A DNA stretch of 64,000 bases from Candidatus Latescibacterota bacterium (GTDB taxonomy: Bacteria > Latescibacterota > CBDEFO01): the NCBI GenBank assembly GCA_965237525.1, contig CBDEFO010000004.1:64001-128000 (forward strand), given 5' to 3'. Position 1 is the first letter of the stretch. Each line of letters opens with the position of its first letter. The notes under the pieces were generated by a model. It was not told the origin of the DNA. It saw nothing but the letters and a program-made list of their open reading frames with translations, and searched no databases. A program made the translations under genes and the position numbers. Shown piece after piece: positions 27,127 through 58,405 of the stretch.

Positions 27127-28645
27127 AAGCCTTGTGAAATAGTTATGTCCCAGGCAGCGTCTGAAGCGCCGATTATGGGTCAAAGAGTAGCATATCGTAT
27201 CGTTTTGCTGTGGAATAAGCAAAATAGTCTTATCAGAGTTCTGGTCAGCAAGGAACAGGAGCTGTTTGAAGAACAGGATGCACTGTCTTTGACAGACAGG
27301 GCACACATAGACGCTTTCCCCCTTCTTATGAAAGATACAAGCCTCTTGAGATTCTGTACTGTTGCAACAAGATTCAACTGTTCATTCAGTGAGGCTGGTC
27401 CTCTGTAACGGGCTCGTCCCATACCGTGTTGTTGCCTGGCTTCAGCAAAGATATGTTCACTGCGTTTACGGAGTCTCCGGGAGAGTTTGTAGTCAGCTGT
27501 TAATGAGATAGACCGTGCATGATTTCTGGCTTTCGCCTCTCGCACTTTTCTATCCCGTTCGGCCTGAATATGTGCTGAATTTGTCTTGTTTTTCCATGTA
27601 GGAATCGGTTCAATCTTCTCATCGGCTCGCAGAGGAATATGGGGTATGATTCCCCGGTCAAGTACATCAGCGATAAAATTACCAGAACCGTAACCGGTAT
27701 CGGCACTAAGTGTCTGAATGTCTTTGGGCATGGTGTATGTTTCAAGGTCATCTACCATCTTAAGGGCACTTTCGGGCTCTGCTGTCCCTGTCGCCTGCGT
27801 GCCCTGAGTCTCAAGGATTACTCTGCTTTTTGTGTCGATCAGATCATGGCCCATAAACGAGAGAAAAGCCCCTTTGCCCTTCGATTTGCTGTATAAGCGC
27901 GCGTCGGGGTCTGTAGTCGAACGGTGTGTTTGGTTCGTCCACTTTTCACCATGAAAGTCTTTATCCTGAGGATGCCCGGACCTACCCTTTGTCTTATCAC
28001 CTTCAAAACCGATTCCCTTGAGATAATCATCAAGAGAAACAGGGGGTTCTATCGGCTCAATACTTTTCACTGAAGCATCAGCTTGTATCTGAGTGCCGTC
28101 GACACTAAGGTGTTTACCGCTCACAAGACCGACATCTATGCAACACTGGACTACCTGACGCATTATCCGTTCAAACAACCCACTGGATGCCCACTTGTGA
28201 TTGCGAAGCTTGTTGATCGTGCTCCTATCCGGAACCGCATCATCAAATGTCTGATGACAAAACAACCGATATGCCGCATGCATCCCCACTTCCTGACAGA
28301 GCCGATTCTCACTCAAATTATACAGATAGCCAATAAGGATCATTCGAACAACTAATTCAGGATCAATACCGGGTCTGCCATTGTCAGGGCAATAACAATC
28401 TGATACAACGTCTCGTACAAATGAAAAATCAACTGCCTCATCAATCTGACGAAGGATATGATCCTCGGGAACTAAATCCTCCATCTGAAAATAGTGAAAC
28501 ACCGGATTTGTCTGTTCCTGCTTTTGTGGGGTCATTGTTTCCTCCATGTATAATATTATCAATAACATAATATAATACATCGGAGCTGCTTTATCAATGC
28601 TTGTTCTATACTACTTTCTGAATCTAAGGGTTTTTCACAAGGCTT
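27127..28645 (-). mobile_element. IS1182-family element, copy 2 (1519 bp)
   Basis: Same IRs as copy 1, CTAA target duplication (27123-27126 and 28646-28649). Confidence 0.93.
27180..28580 (-). CDS. IS1182-family transposase
   Basis: Differs from the copy-1 protein at two visible residues. Confidence 0.93.
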   Translation of the reverse strand: MYYIMLLIILYMEETMTPQKQEQTNPVFHYFQMEDLVPEDHILRQIDEAVDFSFVRDVVSDCYCPDNGRPGIDPELVVRMILIGYLYNLSENRLCQEVGMHAAYRLFCHQTFDDAVPDRSTINKLRNHKWASSGLFERIMRQVVQCCIDVGLVSGKHLSVDGTQIQADASVKSIEPIEPPVSLDDYLKGIGFEGDKTKGRSGHPQDKDFHGEKWTNQTHRSTTDPDARLYSKSKGKGAFLSFMGHDLIDTKSRVILETQGTQATGTAEPESALKMVDDLETYTMPKDIQTLSADTGYGSGNFIADVLDRGIIPHIPLRADEKIEPIPTWKNKTNSAHIQAERDRKVREAKARNHARSISLTADYKLSRRLRKRSEHIFAEARQQHGMGRARYRGPASLNEQLNLVATVQNLKRLVSFIRRGKASMCALSVKDSASCSSNSSCSLLTRTLIRLFCLFHSKTIRYATL

Positions 28646-31585: not shown

Positions 31586-31782
31586 TTAGTCCCCCTATAA
31601 TACTCATATCCGTAGTAGCACTGTATCTCTGTGGAGGCAAATGTAAGTTATTGCCAATGTCTTGTCAAGCAAAAGAATTAAGGCACTGACAATAATTGAA
31701 TAACGGTTGATATTTACTTGACTCTGGGAGTGAGATTGGGTACTTTACTATAGCAAAAAAGACCACGAGAGGAGTTGAACTC

Positions 31783-32079
31783 TTGACAGTTAAATGGAAG
31801 CATCCTGGCGGGAAACTCAGAGAAGAAGGTTCAGCCAGTCTTACAGAAGGAGAACTCCTCGCCATTCTGATCTCAACAGGCATTCCCGGAAGATCCGCTG
31901 AGAAAATAGCTGAAGAAGTACTCGAAAGGTTCGGTTCACTTGAAGGGCTGGCGAATCAGCCACTTGAGAAATTACTGGAGATCAAGGGCCTATCTGATGT
32001 GAAAATCATTCGAATTGCTGCGGCTTTTGAATTAGCACTCCGTCTTACAGGGAAAAGAGAAAATGAGTGCAATGAATAA
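31783..32079 (+). CDS. RadC/UPF0758 N-terminal HhH-only protein
   Basis: P..KL.EEG.ASLTEGELLAILISTG, L.IKGL..VK..RI.AAFELA. No JAB domain. Putative TTGACT-N17-TACTTT promoter at 31718-31746. Confidence 0.8.
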   Translation: MTVKWKHPGGKLREEGSASLTEGELLAILISTGIPGRSAEKIAEEVLERFGSLEGLANQPLEKLLEIKGLSDVKIIRIAAAFELALRLTGKRENECNE

Positions 32080-35000
32080 GCGAACGCAACTTACTGAAAA
32101 AGCTACACGTATTCCCGATACGCGCCAAGTGCAGTGGGAGGAGGTCATCCCACAATATCTGCGAGAAGTCGAGCAACAGAACAAAGAATCGGCACGTTCG
32201 CACCGCTTTGCGATGCTTGTTCAGCAACTCCTTAGCATTGAACCCGACTTCATAGAGAACTATAGCAGTGGCATTGAGCAATACCTAAAGGTCAAGCAGA
32301 AGGATCGTATCTTGAAGGGTAAAGCGGATAACCTCTTTGGCAATGTTATTATTGAGTTTGAGAGTAACATTCCGGGAAAACTCTCTGAAGCTGAAGGACA
32401 ACTGTGCCGCTATGTCGCAATTCTCTGGTCACAAGAACCCCCTGATGCCCGTACACCGTACCTGTGCATCGCCACAGATGGGGTCCGATTCGTAACCTAC
32501 TCACCAACGCTCGCTGACACAATCACGGAAGATGTGACGCCTGATGACGTGCGCCTTGAAGTGCTTGAAGAAGCGGATTGGACAAAACTCAAACCCAATG
32601 AGGTTTTCTACTGGCTCGACCGGTATTTCCTGCGCAAAGAGCTTTTGACTCCCAAAAGTGAGGAGATCGTCCGCGATTTTGGTGTGAGAAGCCACGCCTT
32701 TCAAACCACCACGAGCGCGCTTTTTACCCTGTGGCAGGAGATTAAAGGGCAAAGTGCCTTCGCAGTGATTTACGATAGTTGGGAAAAATATCTGCGTATT
32801 GTGTACGGAAGTGAGGTTGCAGGCGATGAACTCTTCGTCCGGCATACATATCTAGCAACCCTGGCGAAACTGATGTCATGGGTGCGCATTAGCGAAATCA
32901 CAAGTTTGCCCGATAACGCGCTAATCGTCCAGATGCTCGAAGGGCGATTGTTCAAGGCTCAGGGCATAGAGAATTTCATCGAGGAGGATTTCTTCTCGTG
33001 GCTGGCGCGCCTAAAAGACGAAAAAGTCGGAGTTGACGTAGTGCGTTGGCTATTCAGCCTCTTACAGAATTACAATCTGCGTGAACTCTCAGAGGATGTG
33101 TTGAAATCGCTGTATCAAGAGTTGGTGGACCCCGAAACACGGCATGACCTGGGCGAGTTCTACACCCCCGATTGGCTGGCACATCGCATCGTCCACAAGT
33201 TGCTCGATGCCAATCCGCGCGGCGCGTGTTTTGATCCTGCTTGTGGTTCAGGAACGTTTCTCTATCTTGCGATCAGAGAAAAGATTGATCGACTTAATCG
33301 TTCCTTATCCACACTAGACCATATTCTTGACTCAGTATATGGCGCAGACGTTCACCCGCTCGCGGTCATCGTTGCCAAGACAAACTACATCCTTGCCCTT
33401 GGGGATTTGCTCAAGAAGCGGAAAGGTGCAGTCACTATCCCGATTTACCTGACAGATACGATCAAATTGCCCGAACGATGGTCAAAGACTGAGACCGCAG
33501 ACTACCTAATTACAATCAATGATCGTCCTATTCATCTACCTGAAGCACTGCTCAGTAATTTCGACCCAGCGATTGAACTGGCGAAAGAGTTTGCACAGCA
33601 AAATAGAGGTAAACCTATCTCTACAGAAGAGTTCCGCAACTTTCTCACAGTACAAGGTTTCCGCGATGTTGACCATATTGAGAAGCTCTTTGCCCTTACC
33701 AGCGTGCTGAAGGACTTCATTGATACTGACCGTGACACGATCTGGGCATTTGTACTCAAAAACATCTACAAACCGCTCTCTTTCAAAAACAGATTCGATT
33801 TCGTCATGGGCAATCCACCCTGGATCTCATTCCGTTTTATGGAGTCCGACTATCAGAAATTTCTGAAAAGTCAAATCACGCAGGAGTATAAATTGCTCAC
33901 TGGAAGAGGTGAACTCATTACCCAGACGGAGGTGGCGACGCTGTTTCTCATGCGTGCTGCAGATTTGTATCTCAAAAGTGGCGGGACGATTGGCTTTGTC
34001 TTGCCCAGAAGCCTGTTCAGTGCCGACCAACATGATGGGTTGCGCAAACATAGCTTCAAATTTAGTGAAGACGAAGGACAAACACTTTCCTTCCGCGAGG
34101 TTTGGGACTGCGAGAATGTCAAGCCATTGTTCAACGTGCCTGCCTGTGTGTTGATAGCAGATAAAGGTCAGACAGCCAAGATGGAATATCCAATCGCAGG
34201 ACAGATTTTAAGCGGAAAACTCGAACGAAAAAATGCCTCGCTCGAAGAAGCTGAGGAAACACTTACAATAGAAGACACTGAGTTTTCACTTCACACGCGC
34301 GGCAAGCGGTCATTTTGGGCGACGGGCACTGCTGTGTCTACATACACAGAGAGCTACTATAAGAAGCGGTTCTTGTTGGGTGCAACGATTTTCCCACGCT
34401 CCTTCTGGTTTGTGCAAGTGCAACCATCACCGCTTGGATTCGATCCAAATCACCTCCGCTGGAAACAGCCGACCGAGCAAGAAAGGAGGCTAAGGAAGCG
34501 TACAAAAGTGTGTTTTTCAGGGATACCGTTGAAAGCCGATTTCTTTATGCGACGCTTCTGTCCACCGATTTGCTCCCGTTCGGGCATCTTGATCATCGTT
34601 TAGTCGTGTTGCCAATTGAACCGGAAGGAGACCACTACAGACTTTTTGATGCAAACGAAGCACATCGGAGAGGCTTTCTGAGTCTGGAGCGATGGCTTGG
34701 GAAGGCGGAAAAAGAGTGGAACACGCGGCGCGGATCAAAGGCAAGTCGAATGAAAGTCTATGAGCGACTTGACCGATTTCACGGGCTGACGACACAAAAT
34801 CCACAAGCTAAATATCGGGTAGTTTACAACACTTCAGGCACACATCTGACGGCGGCTGTCGTCGAAGACGAGCCAATCGAGTTTGAAGTCAATGGGCAGT
34901 ATCTCACGGTACAGGGATTCCTTGTGGATTATACGACTTATTATTATGAACTAACCTACAGCCATGAAGCTTTCTACTTAGCAGCTGTTCTTAACGCGCC

Positions 35001-35289
35001 TGTAATTGATAGGCTAATCAAGCCGATGCAGAGCCGTGGCTTGTGGGGACCGCGTCACATCTGCAAAAAAGTCCTAGAACTTCCTATCCACCAGTTTCAT
35101 ACAGCTAATCCCGTCCATTGCAAGTTAGCAGAGTTGGGTGAAGAATACAGCACCAAAGTGCAGCAGTGGCTCGCAAGCGGTGGAAAAGGTAAGATCAAGA
35201 GCATCGGCAAGTTGCGCGGGATCGTGCGAGAAATGTTAAAGGACGAATTAGAGGAAATTGATAGGATGGTCAAGGAGATTCTTGTATAA
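32063..35289 (+). pseudogene. Type IIG-like restriction endonuclease-N6 methyltransferase fusion, frameshift near 34450
   Basis: N-terminal ADNL...IIEFE..ATDG nuclease-like part, GEFYTP, DPACGSGTF and GNPPW motifs. C-terminal recognition region continues in the 34510-35289 frame. Confidence 0.8.
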
Positions 35290-35307
35290 ACCAGGATCAA
35301 ACAGTTA

Positions 35308-35586: not shown

Positions 35587-36726
35587 TCAGCTCTGCCGAT
35601 AGACCCGCCCGCCCTTGACAACCGCCACGGGCACGAGCTTCTGCTTGCCGATGCGCATGTCGCCGTCCGTGTCCTGCAACTGGAATTCGCCAGAACGTAA
35701 TTCGAAGACGACCGCATCGCCCCATGCTCCGACCGAGAGTGTACCGATTTTATCTGGCATCAAAATTGTCTGAGCAGGAACAGCCGTAACCTTCGCGATC
35801 GCGTTGTCGAGCGTCAAGCCCAGACGGAGAAACTTGGTAACCACCGTCGCCAGGTCGTAGACGGGACCGTCTATGTTGTAAATGTGCAGGTCCGATGAGA
35901 TAGTTTGAGGCTCGACTCCCTGCTCCATCGCTCGTTCAGCAACCTTCCAGTTGAACGATCCTGCGCCGTGCCCAACATCGAAAACAACGCCGCGCTCCAT
36001 CGCCTCACGCACCGATTTTCGCACTTGACCATGATCGTCCAGGATGCCGCACGCCATACCGTGGAAGCAGTGAGTCATGATGTCGCGCTCGCGCATAACG
36101 GCTAAAATATCGTCAATCGAGGCGCACCAGGCATCCTGCGGATGAACCATGATGGGCAATCCGGCCGCGCCTGCGGCCTCGCGCGCTCGGTGCAGGGGCG
36201 ACATCCCTGACTTCTCGCTGACGATGAGGTTCTTTGTAAGTCGAACCTTCACACCCAGAATCACATCGCGGTGCTTTTCTATCATCTGGCACGCTTTGTC
36301 CACATTTGCGTACTCAGGGATTTCGAACTCACCGATTTCGACGGTCAGCATCCCCTGTGACGAAATGTTGAGCTGCGCCAGGATACGCGTTCCGCTCACC
36401 TCAATCACATACTTGCGAAAGCCCGGAAAGGTGTCCGCTCCCGCAGAACCTGCGTCGACCACTGTGGTTGCTCCCTTAGCCAGACAGGTAGGGTCAGGCT
36501 CGATGCCGAAGTGGCTGACGCCGTAGAACACATGGACGTGCAAATCGATCATCCCTGGCGTGACGATGCGACCACTTGCGTCCAGCACCTCGCGCGCCTC
36601 CGTCTTAGACAGATCATCATCGACAGCGGAAACGACGCCATCTGTAAAAGCCACGTCCTTTTTCGCGTGGAGCTTCAGTGCAGGGTCGACGAGCGTCCCG
36701 CCTTTGACAAGCAAGTCATAAGTCAT
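35587..36726 (-). CDS. Amidohydrolase/deacetylase-family metallohydrolase (dihydroorotase-like)
   Basis: PGMIDLHVH, GATTVVDAGSAG, THCFHG, FDVGHGAGSF, ISSDLH. Confidence 0.9.
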   Translation of the reverse strand: MTYDLLVKGGTLVDPALKLHAKKDVAFTDGVVSAVDDDLSKTEAREVLDASGRIVTPGMIDLHVHVFYGVSHFGIEPDPTCLAKGATTVVDAGSAGADTFPGFRKYVIEVSGTRILAQLNISSQGMLTVEIGEFEIPEYANVDKACQMIEKHRDVILGVKVRLTKNLIVSEKSGMSPLHRAREAAGAAGLPIMVHPQDAWCASIDDILAVMRERDIMTHCFHGMACGILDDHGQVRKSVREAMERGVVFDVGHGAGSFNWKVAERAMEQGVEPQTISSDLHIYNIDGPVYDLATVVTKFLRLGLTLDNAIAKVTAVPAQTILMPDKIGTLSVGAWGDAVVFELRSGEFQLQDTDGDMRIGKQKLVPVAVVKGGRVYRQS

Positions 36727-36905
36727 GTTTCAACCTCCATATTCGTCTTCTTGTAACGGATGTTTCCTTCCATTGCTGTGCCAACAGCTTAAGCATAAAA
36801 CACAAAGTTGTCAATAAAAATTTGAGGGGATGCTATTTTGAGCAGACATGGGAGGAGCATTCCTACTGCAGAATACTTGTGGTTTTGTCAAGGGGAGAGC
36901 GTACC

Positions 36906-37017
36906 AAAATATCGGAGTTTGCACTACTTGTTTCAAAATTAGACATGAAATAATATGGTTGACTTTCAAGGGTTATAAGAGTAGATTGCACATGGGTTAG
37001 GAATTATTATCTAAGTT
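36906..37017 (+). promoter_or_regulatory. Promoter/attI-like module A
   Basis: AAAATATCGGAGTTTG..., TTGACT(36959)-N17-TAGATT, ends at CTAA/GTT. Homologous to 39695-39842 and 44218-44366. Confidence 0.7.
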
Positions 37018-37038
37018 CTGAATAAAAGGAATGGCGTT

Positions 37039-37947
37039 ATGTCGCAGCATTTTCATCACCTGCAGACCGAGGAATTGTCACTTGTGATTGGGGACAACTC
37101 CGCGCATCAGGACCACCAAGCAGGATACAACGGCATCTGGCAGATCACATCAGTTCACGATTGTCGACCCTTGTTCGTGCCCAGGTATTGCGGTATGAAC
37201 TTTGAGTTTATTGCTCCCTTGTCTGCTCCGCACGCGACGGAGCCCAAAGATCACCCCACAGAATTGCTTGTTGATGACAAACTGCGTCAGGTCACTCTGT
37301 ACCAGACGCCCACCTCCGAGCACCATGTCGAAAGTTGGATGACCTATCGGACGGCAGGCCCTTCCCACGTGGATTGGACTTTCCGCTATCGCCTGCATGA
37401 TTCAGGGGCGTTTCCCACGGAATTTGCCGGTTTCTTCTTTGCCAATTACATCCATCAACCGGAGAACAAGGCTATTTACCTGTTGAGTCGGGATGCCTAT
37501 GACGCGCTGATGTGGATTCAGTTTTGTACGACGTTTCAGGGTCGAGACAGTGCAGTAACCTGGGAGGCCGATTCGTACGATTTGCATTTCGGGCCACATG
37601 ACCGCGGATTGTATACATCACGTGCACCCATTCGGTACACTGTTCCGATGATGTTGGGCCGCCGTGGTGACATGGCGTTCGTATTGATGTTTGAAAGTCC
37701 TCGTGGCGTCGTGATCTCGCACGGTATGGGCGGAGGTGGCTTTGTCGAAGATCGTTCGGACCGTAACCCGGCGTGGGATTTCTTTCTCTATGCGAGGGAT
37801 ACTGCAGAGCATCCAGAAGGACAATGGAACGGCCGACTGGTTTATAAGACATTTCTGGGCCGCGATGAGATCCTGAGTGAGTATCAGGACTTCCAGCGTT
37901 CGTTGGGTCACAACTGGACAATTCCGTCTTATGGACCCGATGCATAG
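37039..37947 (+). CDS. Hypothetical protein, probable beta-sandwich/mutarotase-like fold (cassette-like)
   Basis: 302 aa ORF (GDN...H.AGYNGI, G.NFE, NPAWDF), followed by attC. Confidence 0.7.
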   Translation: MSQHFHHLQTEELSLVIGDNSAHQDHQAGYNGIWQITSVHDCRPLFVPRYCGMNFEFIAPLSAPHATEPKDHPTELLVDDKLRQVTLYQTPTSEHHVESWMTYRTAGPSHVDWTFRYRLHDSGAFPTEFAGFFFANYIHQPENKAIYLLSRDAYDALMWIQFCTTFQGRDSAVTWEADSYDLHFGPHDRGLYTSRAPIRYTVPMMLGRRGDMAFVLMFESPRGVVISHGMGGGGFVEDRSDRNPAWDFFLYARDTAEHPEGQWNGRLVYKTFLGRDEILSEYQDFQRSLGHNWTIPSYGPDA

Positions 37948-38076
37948 TCCGGTTCGGCGTCGGCTACAATACCAAAGCGGTCAAATTTCCTGGGTCAGAC
38001 ATAACAAGGCAAACGGAGGGTACCCGCTTGAGTTCCCGATGTAGGACGATTTCTCAAACATATTGAGATGATATTT

Positions 38077-38139
38077 ACCGAACAACCGGTTACACACCGA
38101 ACGCGGAGGACCGCGCGTGTGAGCCGTATGACGTTATGC
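38077..38139 (+). other. attC-like recombination site 1
   Basis: ACCGAAC...CGGTTACAC...GTGAGCCG...GTTATGC, 63-bp imperfect palindrome. Confidence 0.75.
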
Positions 38140-38161
38140 ATTCTGAATAGGAGGAATTAGC

Positions 38162-39049
38162 ATGCGGCCTCAGATAAGCAGTCAGTGGTGGCAGGTGGCG
38201 GGCAATCCTAATCTGAGACATTACGGAACGCCTCACCAGCAGCCTGTTGATTTCGCGATATGGCAAGCAGAAGACAGCACTTGGCAGCTGTGGTCCTGCA
38301 TCAGACACACCGCCTGCGGCGGACAGACGAGGCTGTTCTACAGATGGGAGGGAACAGACCTAAAGCAGGAGCATTGGGAGCCGAAGGGCGTCGCCATGGA
38401 GGCGAGGGTTGACCTCGGCGAGACGGAAGGCGGCCTTCAGGCCCCACATGTCATCAAAGAGAACGACACGTACTACATGTTCTATGGAGACTGGAATCGC
38501 ATTTGCCTTGCCAGCAGCAGGGACGGAAAATCGTTCGAGCGCGTGTTGGGGAAAAACGGCCAACCCGACCTCTTTTCCGGGCCGTACGAGAACAGCCGCG
38601 ACCCCATGGTTCTGACGGTCGACGGTGTTTTTCACTGCTACTACACGGGGCACAAGGAAGACGCAAAGCCGGCGGCAGCCGTCTTCTGCCGCACTTCTCC
38701 CGATCTCCTCGATTGGAGCGATCCCGTCGTTGTGTGTGCGGGAGGGGCCGCCGCCAGACAAACTGGTTGGTTAGGAAATTGTGAATGTCCATTCGTCGTT
38801 GAAGTCGACGGATTGTTCTGTCTGTTCCGCAATCAGAGATATGGGGTGGACAACCTTAATACACAATACTGCTCGCCTGACCCGCTGAGTTTCGGAATCG
38901 ACGACGATCGCTTTTATGTGGGGACACTGCCCGTTGCCGCACCGGAGATCATAGAACACAGGGGACGGTACTACATTGCGGCATTACTGCCTGATCTGAC
39001 GGGCTTCCGGATTGCAGAGCTCGACTGGGTCGATCAGGATAATGCATAA
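38162..39049 (+). CDS. Five-bladed beta-propeller glycoside hydrolase (GH32/GH43-like), gene cassette
   Basis: PVDF, LQAPHV, SRDPMV, CECPFV motifs. Cassette ends GTTATGCATT / AATGCATAAC are perfectly complementary. Confidence 0.75.
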   Translation: MRPQISSQWWQVAGNPNLRHYGTPHQQPVDFAIWQAEDSTWQLWSCIRHTACGGQTRLFYRWEGTDLKQEHWEPKGVAMEARVDLGETEGGLQAPHVIKENDTYYMFYGDWNRICLASSRDGKSFERVLGKNGQPDLFSGPYENSRDPMVLTVDGVFHCYYTGHKEDAKPAAAVFCRTSPDLLDWSDPVVVCAGGAAARQTGWLGNCECPFVVEVDGLFCLFRNQRYGVDNLNTQYCSPDPLSFGIDDDRFYVGTLPVAAPEIIEHRGRYYIAALLPDLTGFRIAELDWVDQDNA

Positions 39050-39100
39050 CTACTGTTTCCAGCCGATGGCTGGAAGCCGCGCCTGAAGCACACGTTCGGC
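39044..39100 (+). other. attC-like recombination site 2
   Basis: GCATAAC overlapping the stop codon ... GTTCGGC, 57 bp. Confidence 0.75.
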
Positions 39101-39136
39101 ATCAGTAAGATTAGAACTGGCATCCCCCTACAGAGA

Positions 39137-39356
39137 ATGGATCTCTTAATGAATTCGCAGATCAAGATTACACGGAATCCTGTCTTTGACGGGACCATCA
39201 GTCCCTTCATTTATGGTGAATTCGTGGAGTTTATAAATGACCTGATCCCTGGCATGTGGGCAGAGATGATCCGGGATCGTTCGTTCGAAGGGTTTTCGCA
39301 GCCAACGTATTTCTACCGCAAGGAGAAGGACTTCCCCAAGCCAGCATGGCGTGAGA
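39137..39356 (+). pseudogene. Truncated alpha-L-arabinofuranosidase (GH51-like) N-terminus
   Basis: ISPFIYGEFVE...GMWAEMIRDRSFE, cut off by the duplicated segment at ~39347. Confidence 0.7.
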
Positions 39357-39806
39357 TTCGGCCACTTGCGTTCAGCATCTCGCGCGCCTCCGTCTTAGGC
39401 AGATCATCACCGACAGCGGAAACGAGGGCATTTGTAAAAGCCACGTCCTTTTTCGCGTGGAGCTTCAGTGCAGGGTCGACGAGCTGCCCGCCTTTGACAA
39501 GCAAGTCATAAGTCATATTTCAACCTCCATATTCGTCTTCTTGTAACGGATGTTTCCTTCCATTGCTGTGCCAACAGCTTAAGCATAAAACAGAAAGTTG
39601 TCAATAAAAATTTGAGGGGATGCTATTTTGAGCAGACATGGGAGGGGCATCCCTACTGCAAAATTCTTGTCGCTCTGTCAAGGAAAGCAGTGCCAAAATA
39701 TCGGAGTTTGCACTATTTGTTTCAAAATTAGACATGAAATAATATGGTTGACTTTCAAAGGGTATAACAATAAATTGGAGATTGGTTTTCAATCATTATC
39801 TAAGTT
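39347..39806. repeat. ~460 bp direct repeat of 36556-37017 (amidohydrolase 5' end + intergenic + promoter module)
   Basis: Near-identical MTYDLLVKGG.LVDPALKLHAKKDVAF coding fragment and upstream region. Confidence 0.93.
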
Positions 39807-39842
39807 ATGATAACTGAAAGTTATTTTGGTTAACTAATAGTT
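39695..39842 (+). promoter_or_regulatory. Promoter/attI-like module B
   Basis: TTGACT(39748)-N17-TAAATT, then repeated GTT boxes ending GGTTAACTAATAG/TTCGCC. Confidence 0.7.
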
Positions 39843-39875
39843 CGCCTTTGACAATTAATGGGAGGCCTGAGCCAT

Positions 39876-40358
39876 ATGTTTGATATGCTGGTGAAGTTGT
39901 ATGATCTGCCCGCAGTAGAGCCTTCTGTCAGGGGTCTAAGGGAACAGGGGGTAGGTGTCCGTCGCGCGATGTCCTACGAAAAAGCCGAGGTGATCAAATG
40001 GGTCGACGGCAAATTTGTCGGTGAGTGGACAAGTGAAAGCGACGTTGCTTTTAGTAACCATCCCATTTCCTGTTTTCTAGCCACAGAGGAAGGCGAGATC
40101 ATAGGTTTTGCCTGCTATGACTGCACCTGCAAGAATTTCTTCGGACCCACAGGTGTTGTCGAAGAGAAGCGCTCTCGCGGAATTGGCAAAGCATTGTTAC
40201 TGTGCTGTCTACACGCTATGGCGGCAAACGGATACGGTTACGCAATCATAGGCGGGGTTGGTCCTGCTGATTTCTACGCAAAAGCGGTAGGTGCAGTTGA
40301 GATCAAAGGCTCATCTCCCGGAGTCTACCGCGATCGGTTGAAGAAGACGGAAAGCTAA
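39876..40358 (+). CDS. GNAT-family N-acetyltransferase, gene cassette
   Basis: FFGPTGV..E.RSRGIGKALL, GYGYAIIGG. Stop overlaps attC. Confidence 0.88.
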   Translation: MFDMLVKLYDLPAVEPSVRGLREQGVGVRRAMSYEKAEVIKWVDGKFVGEWTSESDVAFSNHPISCFLATEEGEIIGFACYDCTCKNFFGPTGVVEEKRSRGIGKALLLCCLHAMAANGYGYAIIGGVGPADFYAKAVGAVEIKGSSPGVYRDRLKKTES

Positions 40359-40415
40359 CAAGATGCGTGCACGGTACGGTGCTGGACATGCCCACCGTAA
40401 AGCAAGACGTTGGGC
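40353..40415 (+). other. attC-like recombination site 3
   Basis: AGCTAAC ... TACGGTG/CACCGTA stem ... GTTGGGC, 63 bp. Confidence 0.7.
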
Positions 40416-40594
40416 TGGAGGGAAGTCCATAGATGACAGTGCAAAGAACCACACTCTTGATACCAGGACGGAACAAAACTCATTCTATGGAGAAGGAGAG
40501 TTAAACAGGGGGCTCAGAGGCCCGGCGGCGGGCGGATGTCAAATGGCGAAAATGTCTGTTTATTTGATCTATGGGCTATGAGCAGTGAGGACTT

Positions 40595-41722
40595 ATGATA
40601 CGGAGCGCCATCCATTGGCACAAGGTGATATGCCGGCAACCCGGCGACTTCATCGGCTTCCCAACAGTGACGCAGACGGCAGACGGCGAGATCCTGGCCA
40701 TCTTCTCCGGAGACCGTGAGACTCATCATTGCCCCTACGGCAAGAGCCAGCTCATCCGTAGCAGCGATGGAGGCGAGACGTGGTCGGCGGCCGAGACTGT
40801 AAATAACACGCCGTTGGACGACCGTGACGCCGGCATTGTCGCACTAACATCAGGAACGCTGGTCATGAGTTGGTTCGTCACTGACACCCGCGAGGTCCTG
40901 GAAAATTACCGCGGACCCGTACCAAACAAGGCGTGGGGTCTCTGGCCAACGCCAAAGGAGTGGGAGTCCTGGCGGCGGCACTGTGACAAGATTCCCGACG
41001 ACGTCCGAAAGCAGTGGGTCGGAACCAAGATCCACGAACCCTATACCCGACGATCGACTGATGGGGGACGGACCTGGGAAGAACCGGTGCGATCAATCGT
41101 GATGACGCCGCATGGTCCGATCCAGCTAAGCGATGGGAGTCTCCGTTTCGTCGGAATCATCACAGACGAGGGTGGCGAAGGCGCAAGGACTCTGGCTTGC
41201 GCCGCTTCGACCGATGAGGCACGGTCATGGAGCTTGATCGGGACTATGTCCGTAGATAAGAGGTTCGGCGAAACTCACACCTTTAGCGAGCCGCACGCCG
41301 TCGAAGTAGACGACGGGCGGCTCGTCTGTATGTGGCGGCACACCCCGAGCGACAAAGATGCCTCCCAGCATTTTCTGCATCAGTGCGAAAGCGACGACGG
41401 CGGCAAGACATGGAGCGTGATCAGGCCGACACCCATCTGGGGCTATCCGGCCCATCTGCTCCGCCTTCATTGCGGCGACGTGCTGGCCAGTTACGGATAC
41501 CGCCGCGAACCCATGGGACAGCGCGCCTGCTTGAGCCATGACGGCTGCGCCACGTGGGACGTGGACAACGAGATTGTGCTCCGCGACGATGCCACGAGCG
41601 TAGATCTGGGCTATCCCTCGACCGTGGAACTCGAACCGGGGGAGATGCTGACCGTCTATTACCAACTCGTGCCGCCAGATGAGAAGCCCACCCTCGTGGC
41701 GACTCGGTGGTCGCTCGCTTGA
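40595..41722 (+). CDS. Sialidase/BNR-repeat (Asp-box) protein
   Basis: SSDGGETW, STDGGRTW, SDDGGKTW, SHDGCATW Asp-boxes, DLGYPS. Confidence 0.88.
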   Translation: MIRSAIHWHKVICRQPGDFIGFPTVTQTADGEILAIFSGDRETHHCPYGKSQLIRSSDGGETWSAAETVNNTPLDDRDAGIVALTSGTLVMSWFVTDTREVLENYRGPVPNKAWGLWPTPKEWESWRRHCDKIPDDVRKQWVGTKIHEPYTRRSTDGGRTWEEPVRSIVMTPHGPIQLSDGSLRFVGIITDEGGEGARTLACAASTDEARSWSLIGTMSVDKRFGETHTFSEPHAVEVDDGRLVCMWRHTPSDKDASQHFLHQCESDDGGKTWSVIRPTPIWGYPAHLLRLHCGDVLASYGYRREPMGQRACLSHDGCATWDVDNEIVLRDDATSVDLGYPSTVELEPGEMLTVYYQLVPPDEKPTLVATRWSLA

Positions 41723-41790
41723 CCTGAGCGACGCCTACGGTTATATGACTCGGCTCGCCAAGGTCTGGCGCACAGATTTAAGGAGAAGCT

Positions 41791-42822
41791 ATGACTCATG
41801 CAAAGATAGGCTTTGTTGGCTGCGGAACCCATGCCACAAACAACTTGTACCCGATGCTCCGATATGCGAGGTGTAGCCTGGAGACTGTATGCGATCTGGA
41901 TGAAGAGCTTGCGGCACGAAACGCTCGGCTATTCGGTGCATCCTCGTACTACGTCGATGTTGAGAAGATGCTATCCGAGAGCGATTTAGATGGGGTTCTC
42001 GTCGTTGGGCCATCTGAAATGCACTACGAGATTGGCAAAAAGGTACTTGCCTGCCGCTTGAATCTTTTTGTCGAGAAACCCCCTGCGCCTGACTTGAGGC
42101 GGACTCAGGAGCTTGTTGATCTGGCGCGGAAGAATAACGTATTCATCATGGCGGGTTTCGTGAAGCGCCACGGCATGACCTACGCCAAGGTGAGACACCT
42201 AATCGAGACGGGGCAATTCGAACCAGCGATGGGGTTTCTCAAGTACGGACACTGGCCGAACACCGATCTCCGGAGAATGGTTCTGGACATGTGTTGTCAT
42301 GCCATTGATCTTGCAATCAGCTTTTTCGGGGAGGTGTCAAGTGTAACTTCCCACCTTGTCGAATTAAGTCGGACTCTATCTCTGGCCGTGACGCTTCGTT
42401 TCCGGTCAGGAAAGGTCGCTCAACTCATGCTCGACTCGTCGCAGCCCCGGATTCAGGAACGCGTGGAGATCTCCGGGACACTCGACGGGAAGAATGCTCT
42501 GATCGTGGTAGACAACGTTCATCAGTTGGAGGTTCACAGGCAGGGACGCGACGGCATTGATCTCTTGGCTCCGAGTCTGCCAGAAGTGGTTCCTGAGTTC
42601 GATCTGGACGACATACGCGTCTGGCGTCCAGACTACGGAATCCCGAACATGGGGCAGACGCGTCACTTCTTCCAGGGCTTTGCCGGCGAGATCCGAGAGT
42701 TCGTGGACGCAATCCTGGAGAACCGTGAGCCTTACCCCTGTGCTGAAGACGCGCTGAAGACGATGGCTGTCGTTGAGGCAATTGCATCGAAACCGGATGG
42801 AACAACTGAATTTGGCGGATGA
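41791..42822 (+). CDS. Gfo/Idh/MocA-family oxidoreductase
   Basis: IGFVGCG, FVEKPP and D...H.IDL motifs. Confidence 0.9.
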   Translation: MTHAKIGFVGCGTHATNNLYPMLRYARCSLETVCDLDEELAARNARLFGASSYYVDVEKMLSESDLDGVLVVGPSEMHYEIGKKVLACRLNLFVEKPPAPDLRRTQELVDLARKNNVFIMAGFVKRHGMTYAKVRHLIETGQFEPAMGFLKYGHWPNTDLRRMVLDMCCHAIDLAISFFGEVSSVTSHLVELSRTLSLAVTLRFRSGKVAQLMLDSSQPRIQERVEISGTLDGKNALIVVDNVHQLEVHRQGRDGIDLLAPSLPEVVPEFDLDDIRVWRPDYGIPNMGQTRHFFQGFAGEIREFVDAILENREPYPCAEDALKTMAVVEAIASKPDGTTEFGG

Positions 42823-42839
42823 ATGCCAAGATAAGAAAG

Positions 42840-42921
42840 ACATAAGCAGCGCATGCAAATCGACTCCGAGATAGCCACCGCTTCGCGTGGACTCCTCGGA
42901 GCAAGTGATGCGCGTTTCTAT
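42840..42921 (+). other. Degenerate attC-like site 4
   Basis: ACATAAG..GCGCATGCA...CTCCGAG...CTCGGAG..TGATGCGC..GTT. Inner boxes intact, outer cores mutated. Confidence 0.6.
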
Positions 42922-43066
42922 ACTATACTATTAGTGTAATTTCAGTATCCAATATTATCGTCATATTGTGCATAGAAGGTATCAGCATTCGTCAGAGAAA
43001 TAAGATGTATACTTTAGGTGGACATTTTCAATGTCTTCTACCTCTATACCTATAAGAGATTGAATA

Positions 43067-44098
43067 ATGCCATTAATCGAAAAGTCAAGGCAACTGTATA
43101 GATGTTGCCCTTTGTGTTAGTCTACAAGTTTCAATTTGTCGATTTCTGCTGACTGTAGGTCTCACCCTCTATACAATTCGGAACTTCCTGGATTTATAAA
43201 CTGGCAGCAATGTAATACCTTTGGTCACAATTTTGCAGATGGATACTTTACTAACCCGATTAATTCATAAACTTGATGGAAGTCATTGCGAGGAGCAAAG
43301 CGACGAAGCAATCTCAAGGTTTTATAGTGGTCTCCTATCAGAGCCGGAGAGTATTACATCTACCACAGAATCGAGATTGCTTCGCCTCCGGATCGCAATG
43401 ACACCGAAGGTGGTTAAACGTCATAACTATAATATAATACAATCCCTTAATTAATATACGGCCTTTTTTTGTGAATTATTCGGGCTAAAGAGGCAACAGA
43501 TATTCTTTTTAGCAAAACCCATGACTATCAGTTATTTAATGTTAAGGATGTTGAGAAATTTCGATGTATGTCTGCAAGATTGATTGATAAAATATCTTCT
43601 GTCTTAAATGGTCAGAAAGGTAAATGGTTGGATGTTGGTTTCGGTAACGGTTTATTAATGACGACATGTGAAGAATATGGTTTTGAGCCAGTCGGTATTG
43701 ATCTTCGCCAAATAGCTGTAGATAAGATGAAGCAACTTGAATATGAAGCTCACTGCATGGAATTAAAAAATTATAAACAATTCAATAGTTTTACAGTTAT
43801 TTCGATGGCCGACGTGTTGGAACATATGCCGTACCCAAGGGAAGCACTTTCTCATGCTCATAAATTGTTAATACCAGGGGGAGTATTGTTTATATCGTGT
43901 CCTAATATGGATTCGTTTCTTTGGAAGGCCTTAACTAAAGAAAACAAGAATCCATATTAGATAGAAATAGAGCATTATCATAATTTTGGACGGAAGCTCC
44001 TTTATTCATTATTAACTGAGCATGGATTTAACCCCTTAACTTATAGCATAAGCGAAAGATATCGAATTGGTATGGAAATTATTGCGATTCGAGAATAA
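43067..44098 (+). pseudogene. Class I SAM-dependent methyltransferase cassette, interrupted by MITE and two TAG stops
   Basis: Removing the MITE restores ...ADGYFTKEATDILFSKTH.... WLDVGFGNG and DVLEHM motifs. TAG at 43118 and 43958. Low GC. Confidence 0.85.
43255..43484 (-). mobile_element. MITE copy 2
   Basis: Reverse complement of copies 1 and 3, CTAA target duplication (43251-43254 and 43485-43488). Confidence 0.9.
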
Positions 44099-44102
44099 TG
44101 AA

Positions 44103-44174
44103 ATATAACAAGGCGCTACACCTGACCGCTATTCCGCTACGTTGTATAACGGCTGGTGAGCTTGGTCTTTATTT
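44103..44174 (+). other. attC-like site 5 (core G mutated)
   Basis: ATATAACAAGGCGCTACACCTGACCG...CGGCTGGTGAGCTTGGTC(T)TTATTT. Confidence 0.72.
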
Positions 44175-44217
44175 CACTTTGGTGAGGATGAAAGAACTGC
44201 GAGCTCAATACTGTATG

Positions 44218-44366
44218 AAAATATCGGAGTTTGTATTACTTGTTTCGAAATTAAAAATGAAATAGTGTGCTTGACTTTCAAAAGTTTTAACGGTAAATTG
44301 CAGATTGGTTATGAGTCATTATCTAGGCTATGATAAGTGGAAGTCATTTGGGTTAATTAATAATTA
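44218..44366 (+). promoter_or_regulatory. Promoter/attI-like module C
   Basis: TTGACT(44271)-N17-TAAATT ... GGTTAATTAATAA/TTAGGCT. Confidence 0.7.
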
Positions 44367-44388
44367 GGCTGCGCCCCAGGAGATTTGT

Positions 44389-45156
44389 ATGGGAAATCAA
44401 AAGACACTAATTGTTGGTTCCATTCTATCAGTGATACTCCTGCTTTTTCTGGGTTGGCTGCAGAGTGAAGAGGCGAAGTTTCTAAACCTTTCTCCTCAAT
44501 GGCTAGCAATCGCGGTATTGCCGGTGTTGGTAGCACTTTTTGCTGGGGGATTCATAACACGGTTCAAGGGTTTCGGCGTTGAACTAGAGGCGACTCTGAG
44601 AACACCGGTTGCATCTATGAACTTGACGGCATCCGGTGCAGTTGCAGATATCCCGGGTGATGAGAAGAAAAGCTTCCTATATATCGATAATCTACCGGAC
44701 GATAAGAAGCTCGCAACTCGGAGGCTCCTCTTTAGATCTGGACGGCAGGATTTCTACACTCCCCATGGCATCGAGCGATATGCTCAGGAACTACCAAATA
44801 TTAAGTACTTTGAGATTCGTACCGAGTCTGGAGAGATAATATGCTTTATACCGATCTCTACTTTCCGTGACACCGCCCAACCACGACGCGCTCTCGATTT
44901 CGAAAAACTAAAATTGTTGGTCCAAGCTATTAAACAGAACGAGGTTCCCAACGCTTTCAAGGAGTCTGCCATCACGTTGACGGTTTCTAATGACCAAAGT
45001 TTAGTCGATGTATTAAAGAAGATGCGAACTGAGAGCGCGGAGTTCGCACCGGTAGTATCTCCTACGGGGAAGTACTTGGGTGTGGTGTTTGCCCGTGACG
45101 TGGAGAGACGAATTGCGGATTCAGTGCTGGCGACAACGAAGGCAAGTTCAGCCTAA
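44389..45156 (+). CDS. Membrane-anchored protein with C-terminal CBS-like domain, gene cassette
   Basis: Two N-terminal TM segments + FKGFGVEL, C-terminal APVVSPTGKYLGVV. Cassette ends TTAGGCTG / CAGCCTAAC are complementary. Confidence 0.72.
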   Translation: MGNQKTLIVGSILSVILLLFLGWLQSEEAKFLNLSPQWLAIAVLPVLVALFAGGFITRFKGFGVELEATLRTPVASMNLTASGAVADIPGDEKKSFLYIDNLPDDKKLATRRLLFRSGRQDFYTPHGIERYAQELPNIKYFEIRTESGEIICFIPISTFRDTAQPRRALDFEKLKLLVQAIKQNEVPNAFKESAITLTVSNDQSLVDVLKKMRTESAEFAPVVSPTGKYLGVVFARDVERRIADSVLATTKASSA

Positions 45157-45239
45157 CAACAGCGTGAACGGGACCGGCTTCCAACCGGCCGGGGATTCCG
45201 CTTCCGCTCCACCGCGGTGGATGAGCCGCAGCGTTATAT
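45151..45239 (+). other. attC-like recombination site 6
   Basis: GCCTAACAACAGCG ... GTTATAT, overlapping the stop codon. Confidence 0.68.
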
Positions 45240-45351
45240 TTTTCATGTAATTTCAGTATGGAATTTTATCGTCATGATAGGCATAGAAGCAATCCGCATT
45301 CCCCAGCCACACAACAGATAGCAGCTCCACCTCCTTACAGGCAGAGATCGC

Positions 45352-56322: not shown

Positions 56323-57249
56323 TTAGGGAACAGGCCAGCCGAACCCTATCAGAATTTGGCGGAGTCTTGCCACCTCGTCGTCGCTCAGCGGCATGGAGGG
56401 CGGACGGGGGTCGCCCATCGGATGCCCCATAACCTTCATCAGCGCCTTCTTCATCCGGGACTGCCCACCTGAACTGGTACACGACGCAGAGAAATCTATT
56501 AAGGGGGTGTTCACCTTGTCAAACAGGGCGCCCGCCTCATCGTACTGCTTTGACTCCAAGAGTTCCCATATCTTCTGATCGTGGGGAGGGTAGACCTCAG
56601 CCGTCCGATTGATGTAGCCGCGGCCTCCCATCTTATGGTTGTCCACCGGCCGACTGCTGTTGCAGATTACGTTATAGTGGTCAGAGAACTTCGCCATGTC
56701 CTCGTATTTCATTGTCTCCGGCACCTCCCACTTCACTGCGACCAAGTTCTCAATGTCCTTCATGCGCAAAACCGTCTCGGTCGTGATGCTCTCACAGCCG
56801 TACCAGAAGGTGTTGTAGAGCATAACGCCGATGTCCACAGCATCGGAGATAGCCGCGAAGTAGCGGTACAAATCGTCCTGCGTCGGATGATTAAATACCG
56901 GGAGCGGAATCTGCAATCCTACTGCTCCCATATCCTGCGCCCGCTTGGCATCTTCTATTGACCGCACGGTGTCCTTGTGCTGGATGCCGCAGAGGACAGA
57001 TGCCTTGCCGTTGGCCGCGTTGACGACGGTTCTCAGCAGGTACGGCCACTCATCGTCACGAAGCGACGGACCCTCGCCCATCGCAGCCACCACTTTGATA
57101 GGCACCTTGCCTGCTACAAGGCCCTGCTCAACCCACCACTGGGTCATCTCGCACATCAGACCGTAGTCGATCTCGTACTGATCGTCGAAGGGGGTCGGAA
57201 CGGTTGCCATGGGGCCCTGCAGGTGGAATTTCATTTCCTCCCGCGTCAT
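56323..57249 (-). CDS. DapA-family aldolase/lyase, paralog 1
   Basis: TPFD, AAMGEG, MLYNT and AVKW motifs. Confidence 0.88.
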   Translation of the reverse strand: MTREEMKFHLQGPMATVPTPFDDQYEIDYGLMCEMTQWWVEQGLVAGKVPIKVVAAMGEGPSLRDDEWPYLLRTVVNAANGKASVLCGIQHKDTVRSIEDAKRAQDMGAVGLQIPLPVFNHPTQDDLYRYFAAISDAVDIGVMLYNTFWYGCESITTETVLRMKDIENLVAVKWEVPETMKYEDMAKFSDHYNVICNSSRPVDNHKMGGRGYINRTAEVYPPHDQKIWELLESKQYDEAGALFDKVNTPLIDFSASCTSSGGQSRMKKALMKVMGHPMGDPRPPSMPLSDDEVARLRQILIGFGWPVP

Positions 57250-57478: not shown

Positions 57479-58405
57479 TCAGGGAACAGGCCAGCCGAAC
57501 CCTATCAAAATTTGGCGGAGTCTTGCCACCTCGTCGTCGCTCAGCGGCATCGAGGGCGGTCGCGGATCACCCATCGGACGCCCCATAACCTTCGTCAGCG
57601 CCTTCTTCATCCGGGACTGTCCGCCTGAACTGGTGCAGGTGTTAGCGAAGTCTTCCAAGGCAGATTTCACCCTCTGATACATCGCACCCGCCTCATCGTA
57701 CTGCTTCGCCTCCAATAGTTCCCAGATCTTCAGATCGTGCGGAGGATAGATCTCAGACGTCCAATTGATGTAGCCGCGGCCTCCCAGCTTATGGTTGTCC
57801 ACCGGCCGGCTGCTGTTGCAGATTACGTTATAGTGGTCGGAGAACTTCGCCATGTCCTCATATACCATCGGCTCCGGCACCGTCCACTTCACTGCGACCA
57901 AGTTCTCAATGTCCTTCATGCGCAAAACCGTCTCGGTCGTGATGCTCTCACAGCCGTACCACCAGGTATTGTAGAGCATAATGCCGATGTCCACAGCATC
58001 GGAGATAGCCGCGAAGTAGCGGTACAAATCGTCCTGCGTCGGATGATTAAATACCGGGAGCGGAATCTGCAATCCTACTGCTCCCATATCCTGTGCCCGC
58101 TTGGCATCTTCTATTGACCGCACGGTGTCCTTGTGCTGGATGCCGCAGAGGACAGACGCCTTACCGTTGGCCGCGTTGACGACGGTTCTCAGCAAGTACG
58201 GCCACTCATCGTCACGAAGCGACGGACCCTCGCCCATCGCAGCCACCACTTTGATAGGCACCTTGCCCGCTACCAGGCCCTGCTCAACCCACCACTGGGT
58301 CATCTCGTACATCAGACCGTAGTCGATCTCGTACTGATCGTCGAAGGGGGTCGGAACGGTTGCCATGGGCCCCTGTAGGTGGAATTTCATTTCCTCTCGC
58401 GTCAT
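57479..58405 (-). CDS. DapA-family aldolase/lyase, paralog 2
   Basis: Tandem duplicate of 56323-57249. Confidence 0.88.
   Translation of the reverse strand: MTREEMKFHLQGPMATVPTPFDDQYEIDYGLMYEMTQWWVEQGLVAGKVPIKVVAAMGEGPSLRDDEWPYLLRTVVNAANGKASVLCGIQHKDTVRSIEDAKRAQDMGAVGLQIPLPVFNHPTQDDLYRYFAAISDAVDIGIMLYNTWWYGCESITTETVLRMKDIENLVAVKWTVPEPMVYEDMAKFSDHYNVICNSSRPVDNHKLGGRGYINWTSEIYPPHDLKIWELLEAKQYDEAGAMYQRVKSALEDFANTCTSSGGQSRMKKALTKVMGRPMGDPRPPSMPLSDDEVARLRQILIGFGWPVP

Follow-up and report, generated by a model that had tools for sequence, protein, structure and literature searches.

How does a chromosomal locus with no integrase gene come to carry three promoter-attI heads in front of different gene cassettes? 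The question is raised by an array at positions 36,906 to 45,301 of a 64,000-nt stretch of a Candidatus Latescibacterota genome (hereafter the window; C4:64001-128000 of genome G000, which spans 4.58 Mb in 8 contigs and is 96.6% complete). An earlier sequence-only reading had explained it as a set of stand-alone capture and expression platforms served by an integron-integrase (IntI) in trans. We compared the array with that of a complete, single-contig congener, G001, whose shared blocks are ∼95 to 96% identical to G000. The locus holds attC relics, cassettes with complementary ends, three attI-type heads with a mosaic break inside the head, and no intact intI. We consider it fairly probable, at roughly 60%, that the array is a decayed cluster of attC sites lacking an integron-integrase (CALIN, PMC4889954), built from at least three related heads whose first cassettes were captured by a donor IntI before the DNA entered by homologous or microhomology-assisted recombination.

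Three attI-type heads

A module that we term type A occurs in exactly three copies in G000, with 80 to 86% identity:

36906-37017, + strand: module copy 1; predicted cassette promoter (Pc) at 36959-36987 and an upstream GTT box; the attI L and R boxes are missing here and intact in G001
39695-39846, + strand: module copy 2; predicted Pc at 39748-39776; L box GGTTAAC at 39828-39834, a 5-nt spacer, and R box G↓TT (arrow, crossover) at 39840/39841
44218-44369, + strand: module copy 3; predicted Pc at 44271-44299; L box at 44351-44357 and crossover A↓TT at 44363/44364

The predicted promoter, TTGACT-17-TA(G/A)ATT, is present in all three and matches the consensus at 9 of 12 positions in each; the motif by itself is no more frequent than chance (8 sites vs 9.6 expected), and a test of its conservation gave p=0.09. 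Copy 2 ends in GGTTAAC-TAATA-G↓TT, and copy 3, which is ∼80% identical to the other copies and absent from G001, ends in GGTTAAT-TAATA-A↓TT. GGTTAAY-N5-GTT is found in copy 2 and in copy 1 of G001, and different cassettes start at that base. The sequence-only reading had seen this module as a promoter and attI-like unit, repeated three times, with homology stopping where a cassette begins. The count and the motif hold across the genome, each intact copy precedes a different cassette, and homology stops at the cassette start in copies 2 and 3; the exception is copy 1, which ends ∼35 nt early, at the upstream GTT (37015), without L and R boxes, and copy 3 has A for G at the crossover.

The attI assignment comes from G001, which has the whole of copy 1 and, at the G↓TT of that copy, a DinB-family cassette that is frameshifted and closes with an attC of 46 bits. 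Because this extra strong-attC cassette lies exactly at the predicted crossover, the comparison supports the module as a putative attI head with a predicted promoter, and the array as integron derived. The DinB-family cassette and the attI end are both absent at copy 1 in G000.

One could instead take the module for an ordinary promoter region behind which cassettes happened to integrate at GWT (attG) sites. IntI does insert cassettes at GWT sites genome-wide (10.1101/2022.09.11.507474), and no intI was seen beside a type-A module, but in three intact copies (G001 copy 1, copy 2, and copy 3) the cassette starts at one and the same base, after GGTTAAY-N5, and a parallel head class, type B (below), lies directly behind intI 3′ ends. 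We regard the chance reading as very improbable.

Degenerate attC sites and complementary cassette ends

We scored attC sites with two covariance models built in this analysis, neither of them the IntegronFinder model. R1 was trained on 19 sites from outside (13 class 1 and 6 Gemmatirosa) and R2 on 24 sites, including ones elsewhere in G000 and G001 and in the phylum, with the window sites excluded. As a positive control for R1, held-out attC sites of the phylum score 22 to 46 bits (6 matches, 27 loci). A position-weight scan, which at the chosen cutoff gave 34 matches vs 21 and 28 in shuffles, was used only to pick high-scoring sites. The R″, L, and R′ boxes mark six sites in the array, all on one strand and behind co-oriented genes:

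38077-38139, + strand: degenerate attC with an 8-nt R spacer; R2 11.5 bits
39044-39100, + strand: degenerate attC with 5/7 L-box pairs; R1 16.4 bits (E 0.05), R2 22.2 bits
40353-40415, + strand: degenerate attC; R2 11.1 bits, local E 0.26
∼42840-42922, + strand: attC relic with a strong hairpin (L-box pairing probability, 0.74), a mutated R″ (AAG for AAC), and a shortened R spacer
44103-44174, + strand: best attC of the array, with 7/7 L-box pairs; R1 16.8 bits (E 0.04), R2 37.9 bits, the latter inflated by an R2 training site 85% identical to it
45151-45239, + strand: attC with good outer boxes and a broken L-box stem (3.5/7 pairs); R2 17.7 bits

The sites at 44103 and 39044 are the top two R1 matches in the window; R1 places 45151 at E 5 and missed 38077, 40353, and 42840, the last of which R2 also leaves unscored. 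Recovery is thus 2/6 for R1 at E<0.1 and, for R2, 3/6 at E<0.05 in 64 kb and 5/6 at E<0.3 in 10 kb. The six attC-like sites of the sequence-only reading therefore all have boxes, and the covariance search that it proposed finds five of them with R2 and two with R1, while all six are degenerate, each damaged in some box. Their placement just after or overlapping a stop codon stands for five (starts at −5 to +18 nt); the sixth, 38077, lies 130 nt downstream of its stop.

Several sites bear traces of past events. The R″ of the 38077 site matches an R′ that now stands beyond the following cassette, a layout expected had this cassette inserted into the site. The 44103 site has TTT for GTT; its R′ is destroyed in the window and intact in G001, and in G000 an attC at C7:461147, which follows a type-B attI, shares 85% identity with it. 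The 45151 site is possibly chimeric. An extra site at 37999, an AAC box plus a weak left half alone (score, 0.6), was not counted. On the opposite strand, at 56820-56896 and 57976-58052, weak attC-model matches (12 and 15 bits) lie in a ∼1.1-kb tandem duplication.

Two cassettes have complementary ends, as the sequence-only reading described: 38133-38142 pairs with 39041-39050 (10/10) and 44364-44371 with 45149-45156 (8/8). Complementarity between R′ and R″ is absent or partial in the remaining window cassettes.

Search for an integrase

No IntI above the TIGR02249 cutoff, our criterion, is encoded in G000 or in the complete G001, where only C-terminal remnants were found. The window, which the sequence-only reading had rightly described as free of intI, and its contig yield nothing beyond weak generic recombinase matches. 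The other contigs of G000 contain six short remnants of IntI C termini, the best 54% identical to class 1 IntI1; the best match in G000 to the IntI P0008 covers residues 249 to 338 only and is frameshifted. That reading made its case depend on an IntI in the genome or its relatives: no intact one is found in G000, in G001, or elsewhere in the genus, and full IntIs are found in 15 of 151 phylum genomes. The gene at the usual intI position is indeed an amidohydrolase:

35587-36726, − strand: amidohydrolase/deacetylase-family metallohydrolase (NF006689, over cutoff), a resident chromosomal gene where intI would sit

Relatives of this protein at E≤1e−80 occur in 120 of 168 phylum genomes.

The expectation that one module copy would adjoin an intI failed wherever we looked. 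Among 41 relatives and 168 phylum genomes, the type-A head matched in G000 and G001 only, in neither case beside intI; a 29-bp match in G047 was rejected, as it lies inside a coding sequence. Pattern scans gave two metagenome matches and one in Scytonema, all without flanking homology, one chance match in plasmids, and none in viral sequences, and head profiles found nothing near phylum or viral IntIs.

A recombinase without an IntI domain was considered as a server and rejected: in sequence and in gene neighborhood, two long recombinase open reading frames (ORFs) that we inspected resemble XerC (next to topA/hslV) and XerD. Further recombinase ORFs in the genome comprise one 393-aa phage-type integrase and several fragments. 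An integrase serving the array in trans at present is not supported, given the lack of an IntI above the cutoff in G000 and G001, the broken attC sites, the breakage of two of the three attI ends, and the mosaic structure of the copies.

Origin of the type-A copies

A 467-bp duplicate, 91% identical, ends with copy 2; it begins inside the amidohydrolase gene, includes the 5′ end of that gene, and adjoins a truncated cassette at a microhomology join. The sequence-only reading had not noted this duplication. This duplicated flank could suggest that one resident integron lost intI, that local tandem duplication made the heads, and that deletions removed cassettes, with no import. All type-A copies lie within 7.5 kb, and repeat D5, a duplicated cassette start, fits the same history. 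Local duplication, however, predicts uniform divergence, and we observed a jump from ∼5% to 26% inside the head: copy 1 of G001 and copy 2 differ at 18 of 394 positions (4.6%) to the end of the −35 block and at 21 of 80 (26%) after it (Fisher p 3e−8; best-breakpoint permutation p 0.001). The module tail is not hypermutable, because the orthologous copies 2 of G000 and G001 differ at only 1 of 80 positions there. Copy 1 of G000 and that of G001 show 9/48 mismatches in the tail vs 25/394 before it. Copy 3 is ∼20% diverged and lacks the amidohydrolase flank, and none of seven tested cassette proteins has a second close copy in the genome. We find a purely local origin quite unlikely; the mosaic divergence suggests that a single flank has been joined to −10/attI halves, and to the cassettes behind them, that come from different alleles.

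Where G001 has a different 1.2-kb block, G000 has a ragged-ended block of 1,136 bp, made up of copy 3, its CBS cassette, and 70 bp of the cassette after that. After the 44103 site, intact there, G001 continues with a second methyltransferase cassette and a related attC. The junction between the 44103 site and copy 3 is no assembly artifact, because contigs from other studies' runs, aligned to the locus, bridge it (X2, record 15; X5, record 31); run X5 contains both the G000 and the G001 arrangements. Contigs from four runs over copy 2 have long loose ends that show known alleles only. At copy 1, the difference between G000 and G001 is no clean cassette excision.

We infer that the type-A attI-plus-cassette segments were imported from relatives by homologous or microhomology-assisted recombination. 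The first cassettes would have been captured by IntI in donor integrons, behind predicted promoter and attI heads. The conserved 5′ block of the head (to the −35 box) and the amidohydrolase flank may then have served as the homology anchor, with DNA from relatives replacing or adding the −10/attI half plus whatever cassettes come after. Copies could diverge at G↓TT without a local integrase because incoming DNA would bring its own −10/attI half and cassettes. Cassette arrays have been replaced by recombination without integrase in experiments (PMC3410848), and G000 and G001 both have an intact gene of the ComEC family. The intI gene may have been lost as costly and the head retained as a promoter for cassette genes; an active integrase is costly and becomes inactivated (PMC3510236). 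Recruitment of cassettes from transformed DNA has been described with a resident integrase present (PMC12614218).

A second head class across the genome

G000 has a second head, type B, of ∼180 bp, found downstream of IntI remnants. It is unrelated to type A (profile comparison gave no match between them), and the two types share an attC family. Type B is present in 18 copies at 11 loci on C1, C6, C7, and C8, for example:

C7:460446-460624: type-B head
C7:836365-845137: type-B heads
C8:1490332-1491567: type-B head region

Sixteen of the 18 copies extend to the right end, where 13 have GTT, and different DNA follows each; the left ends are ragged (profile positions 1 to 110), which ruled out, for type B, that heads move as circles made by IntI with a constant upstream GWT as the cut site. 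An inverse match of at least 7 nt at a downstream gene end is seen for 5 of the 16 first cassettes, against a null mean of 1.0 (p 0.0015). As in the window, heads are stacked at C7:836-845 kb, where there are five, and the copies at C7:837051 and 842423 are mosaic, with 0/34 and then 17/82 mismatches.

Turnover behind these heads is visible between the two genomes. G001 has 12 type-B matches, 2 of them with the same first cassette as in G000. At least four G001 loci (L104, L105, L106, and L107) share the upstream flank with G000 and differ from G↓TT onward, and one flank is followed by three different first cassettes (L104, C7:369248, and C1:79541). Several first cassettes of G001 have fresh complementary ends and good attC sites. 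G000 has two copies of a 3-kb paralogous block (C1:76640-79731 and C7:∼366300-369409; 90% identical to G001's copy); each stops at the type-B crossover, and the cassettes that follow differ.

Type B also occurs in 6 of 13 genomes of family f6. In five of these, 64 to 95% complete, the matches number 12, 7, 16, 3, and 5, including partial ones, and an intact cognate intI was not found; the full IntI of one of them, G047, is unrelated (46%). In G047, at C684:2526-3040 (L130), an intI 88 to 96% identical to P0008 lies directly upstream of a type-B head. It is internally deleted, with residues 1 to 56 fused to 284 to 338 in one open frame. P0008 belongs to an IntI clade from other Latescibacterota data (P0001 to P0010; 331 to 338 aa; 83 to 89% identical to the G000 remnant over 64 aa). 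Because this intI is directly upstream at G047:C684, type B is, on sequence grounds, the attI of an inverted-type integron, with a P0008-class protein as its candidate cognate IntI. No type-B copy found lies beside an intact intI, and each is without most of intI.

Orphan heads might also be loaded in place by a trans-acting IntI, either transient (on incoming DNA or a mobile element) or recently lost. The same non-intI flank precedes different first cassettes from G↓TT at copies 1/2, at L104/C7:369248/C1:79541, at L105/C6:75631, and at L106/C6:278355. The fresh ends and good attC sites in G001, the full-length cognate IntIs P0001 to P0010, the 15 phylum genomes with a full IntI, and the attC family common to both head types also favor such loading. 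No intact IntI is present in G000 or G001, however, and recombination between two attI copies also yields divergence at G↓TT; the mosaic break inside the head, the damage to two of three heads and all window attC sites, and the unclean difference at copy 1 fit loading in trans poorly. IntI1 excises attI1-ORF-attI1 at about 100% (PMC12901181); with an active cognate integrase nearby, stacked attI sites would therefore be expected to disappear. We hold loading in trans to be possible but rather unlikely, and recombinational import followed by decay the likelier history. The 18 type-B heads are likely to reflect the same process on a larger scale.

Several points weigh against recombinational import. 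The donor of the type-A heads is hypothetical, because no type-A head was found beside intI in 168 phylum genomes or in metagenome, genome, viral, and plasmid scans. An intI could sit in a gap or an unassembled element of G000, because that genome is 96.6% complete in 8 contigs. Natural competence is suggested by one gene, that of the ComEC family. In the ortholog pair L105 and C6:75631, whose cassettes differ, a private base is shared ∼70 nt upstream of G↓TT, an observation equally compatible with capture in place. The type-B copies form nearly a star phylogeny, in which most pairs cannot separate import from in-place capture, and the type-B cassette swaps fit either.

Cassettes and neighboring genes

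The remaining features of the array are as follows:

37039-37947, + strand: 302-aa ORF, the first gene behind copy 1; no Pfam or NCBIfam match
38134-39094, + strand: cassette with 10-bp complementary ends; gene at 38162-39049 with a weak GH43 beta-propeller match
39095-39350, + strand: cassette start, cut by the duplication junction; no Pfam match
39347-39694, no strand assigned: second copy of 36556-36905 (amidohydrolase 5′ end plus intergenic DNA), with a microhomology join
39858-40358, + strand: GNAT acetyltransferase cassette gene (Pfam PF13508/PF00583)
40595-42822, + strand: two-gene unit, a BNR-repeat protein (40595-41722) and a Gfo/Idh/MocA oxidoreductase (41791-42822)
42923-44102, + strand: methyltransferase cassette, broken in the window; a 265-aa ORF in G001
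43255-43484, no strand assigned: 230-bp hairpin insert resembling a miniature inverted-repeat transposable element (MITE), with a 4-bp target duplication; site empty in G001 and run X5
44389-45156, + strand: cassette gene with a predicted membrane N terminus and a weak CBS match; cassette ends complementary over 8 bp
45233-45306, + strand: ∼70-bp start of a homologue of the methyltransferase cassette, diverged from it (78%; repeat family D5) and truncated against the end of a TPR gene

The leader of the first ORF (37015-37041) resembles that of the GH43-like cassette (38141-38164) and differs from the G001 leader. The MITE-like element has 51 copies of at least 200 bp in the genome. Used as baits for a donor among the 168 phylum genomes, the CBS protein matched in one (itself only) and the GNAT protein in six. 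Upstream in the window, a UPF0758-N fragment with a frameshifted restriction-modification methyltransferase gene (∼31750-35305) and a DDE transposase (27180-28580; DUF772 and DDE_Tnp_1) are not at this place in G001.

Implications

The window array is a decayed, secondary example, and the weight of the finding lies mainly in the genome-wide pattern of orphan attI heads outside it. CALINs are usually recorded without attI sites; here both the sequence and the number of the heads are accessible, and two sister genomes allow a comparison. At these loci intI has been lost repeatedly and the promoter-attI unit retained, and cassettes turn over at sites without an integrase, which offers a testable route for the origin and upkeep of CALINs and supplies two attI classes with a candidate cognate integrase, the P0008 class. 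A bolder idea, which we put forward tentatively and think unlikely as a whole, is a distributed Latescibacterota integron: two classes of promoter-attI docks, ∼20 in all, would be dispersed over the chromosome with no intact integrase next to any of them, would still be reloaded with new cassettes by a borrowed, transient IntI or by dock-anchored recombination, and would be kept as expression ports for foreign genes.

Our literature search, which covered few subscription papers and no supplements, found no genome-wide orphan attI heads and no Latescibacterota integrons. Duplicated attI heads, an attI heading a CALIN, attI pieces in arrays, integrase-free swapping, and mobilization of CALIN cassettes in trans have already been published.

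Comparison with known systems

The locus is closest to a CALIN as described in PMC4889954: it is a small array with at least two co-oriented attC sites by covariance model and no integron-integrase nearby. It differs in keeping three attI/predicted-Pc heads. IntegronFinder searches for attI of classes 1 to 3 only, so such heads normally go unrecorded (PMC4889954). It is no complete integron, as intact intI is missing, while the attI L box, 5-nt spacer, R box, and G↓TT are present in copy 2 and in G001 copy 1.

Like the window, In104 of SGI1, a complex class 1 integron, has a region with two attI sites followed by different cassettes, and its arrays are exchanged by homologous recombination (PMC7056807). 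In104 belongs to a mobile resistance island, whereas the array here is a chromosomal locus. In104 also keeps an intact intI1. Delta-attI-type cassettes of class 1 and 2 integrons carry attI pieces of ≤244 nt, or a whole attI, inside an array; in the cases described in PMC12901181, the attI piece replaces the attC of the cassette and intI is present. In the window, the heads are entire, are preceded by an attC site or a duplication junction, and have no intI: copy 3 comes after an attC and a 45-bp linker, and copy 2 comes after duplicated amidohydrolase DNA. In Shewanella prophage M16-3, attI likewise heads an integrase-less array, but the same element contains a complete integron (PMC9892861).

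Type B resembles the integrons with inverted (co-oriented) integrases, e.g., in Treponema (PMC4889954), in that the head lies downstream of the intI 3′ end and the cassettes run in the same direction. Unlike in these, every type-B copy found is without most of intI, and type A is linked to no intI in any of the sequences searched. A plasmid of Gemmatirosa kalamazoonensis (NZ_CP007129.1, L038, 9944-17864) has a long array of homogeneous 94- to 130-bp attC sites downstream of a co-oriented IntI. Finally, SALIN and attG insertions also place cassettes away from the integrase gene (10.1101/2022.09.11.507474), whereas the insertion points of the Latescibacterota arrays are conserved attI-type sites, not dispersed GWT triplets.

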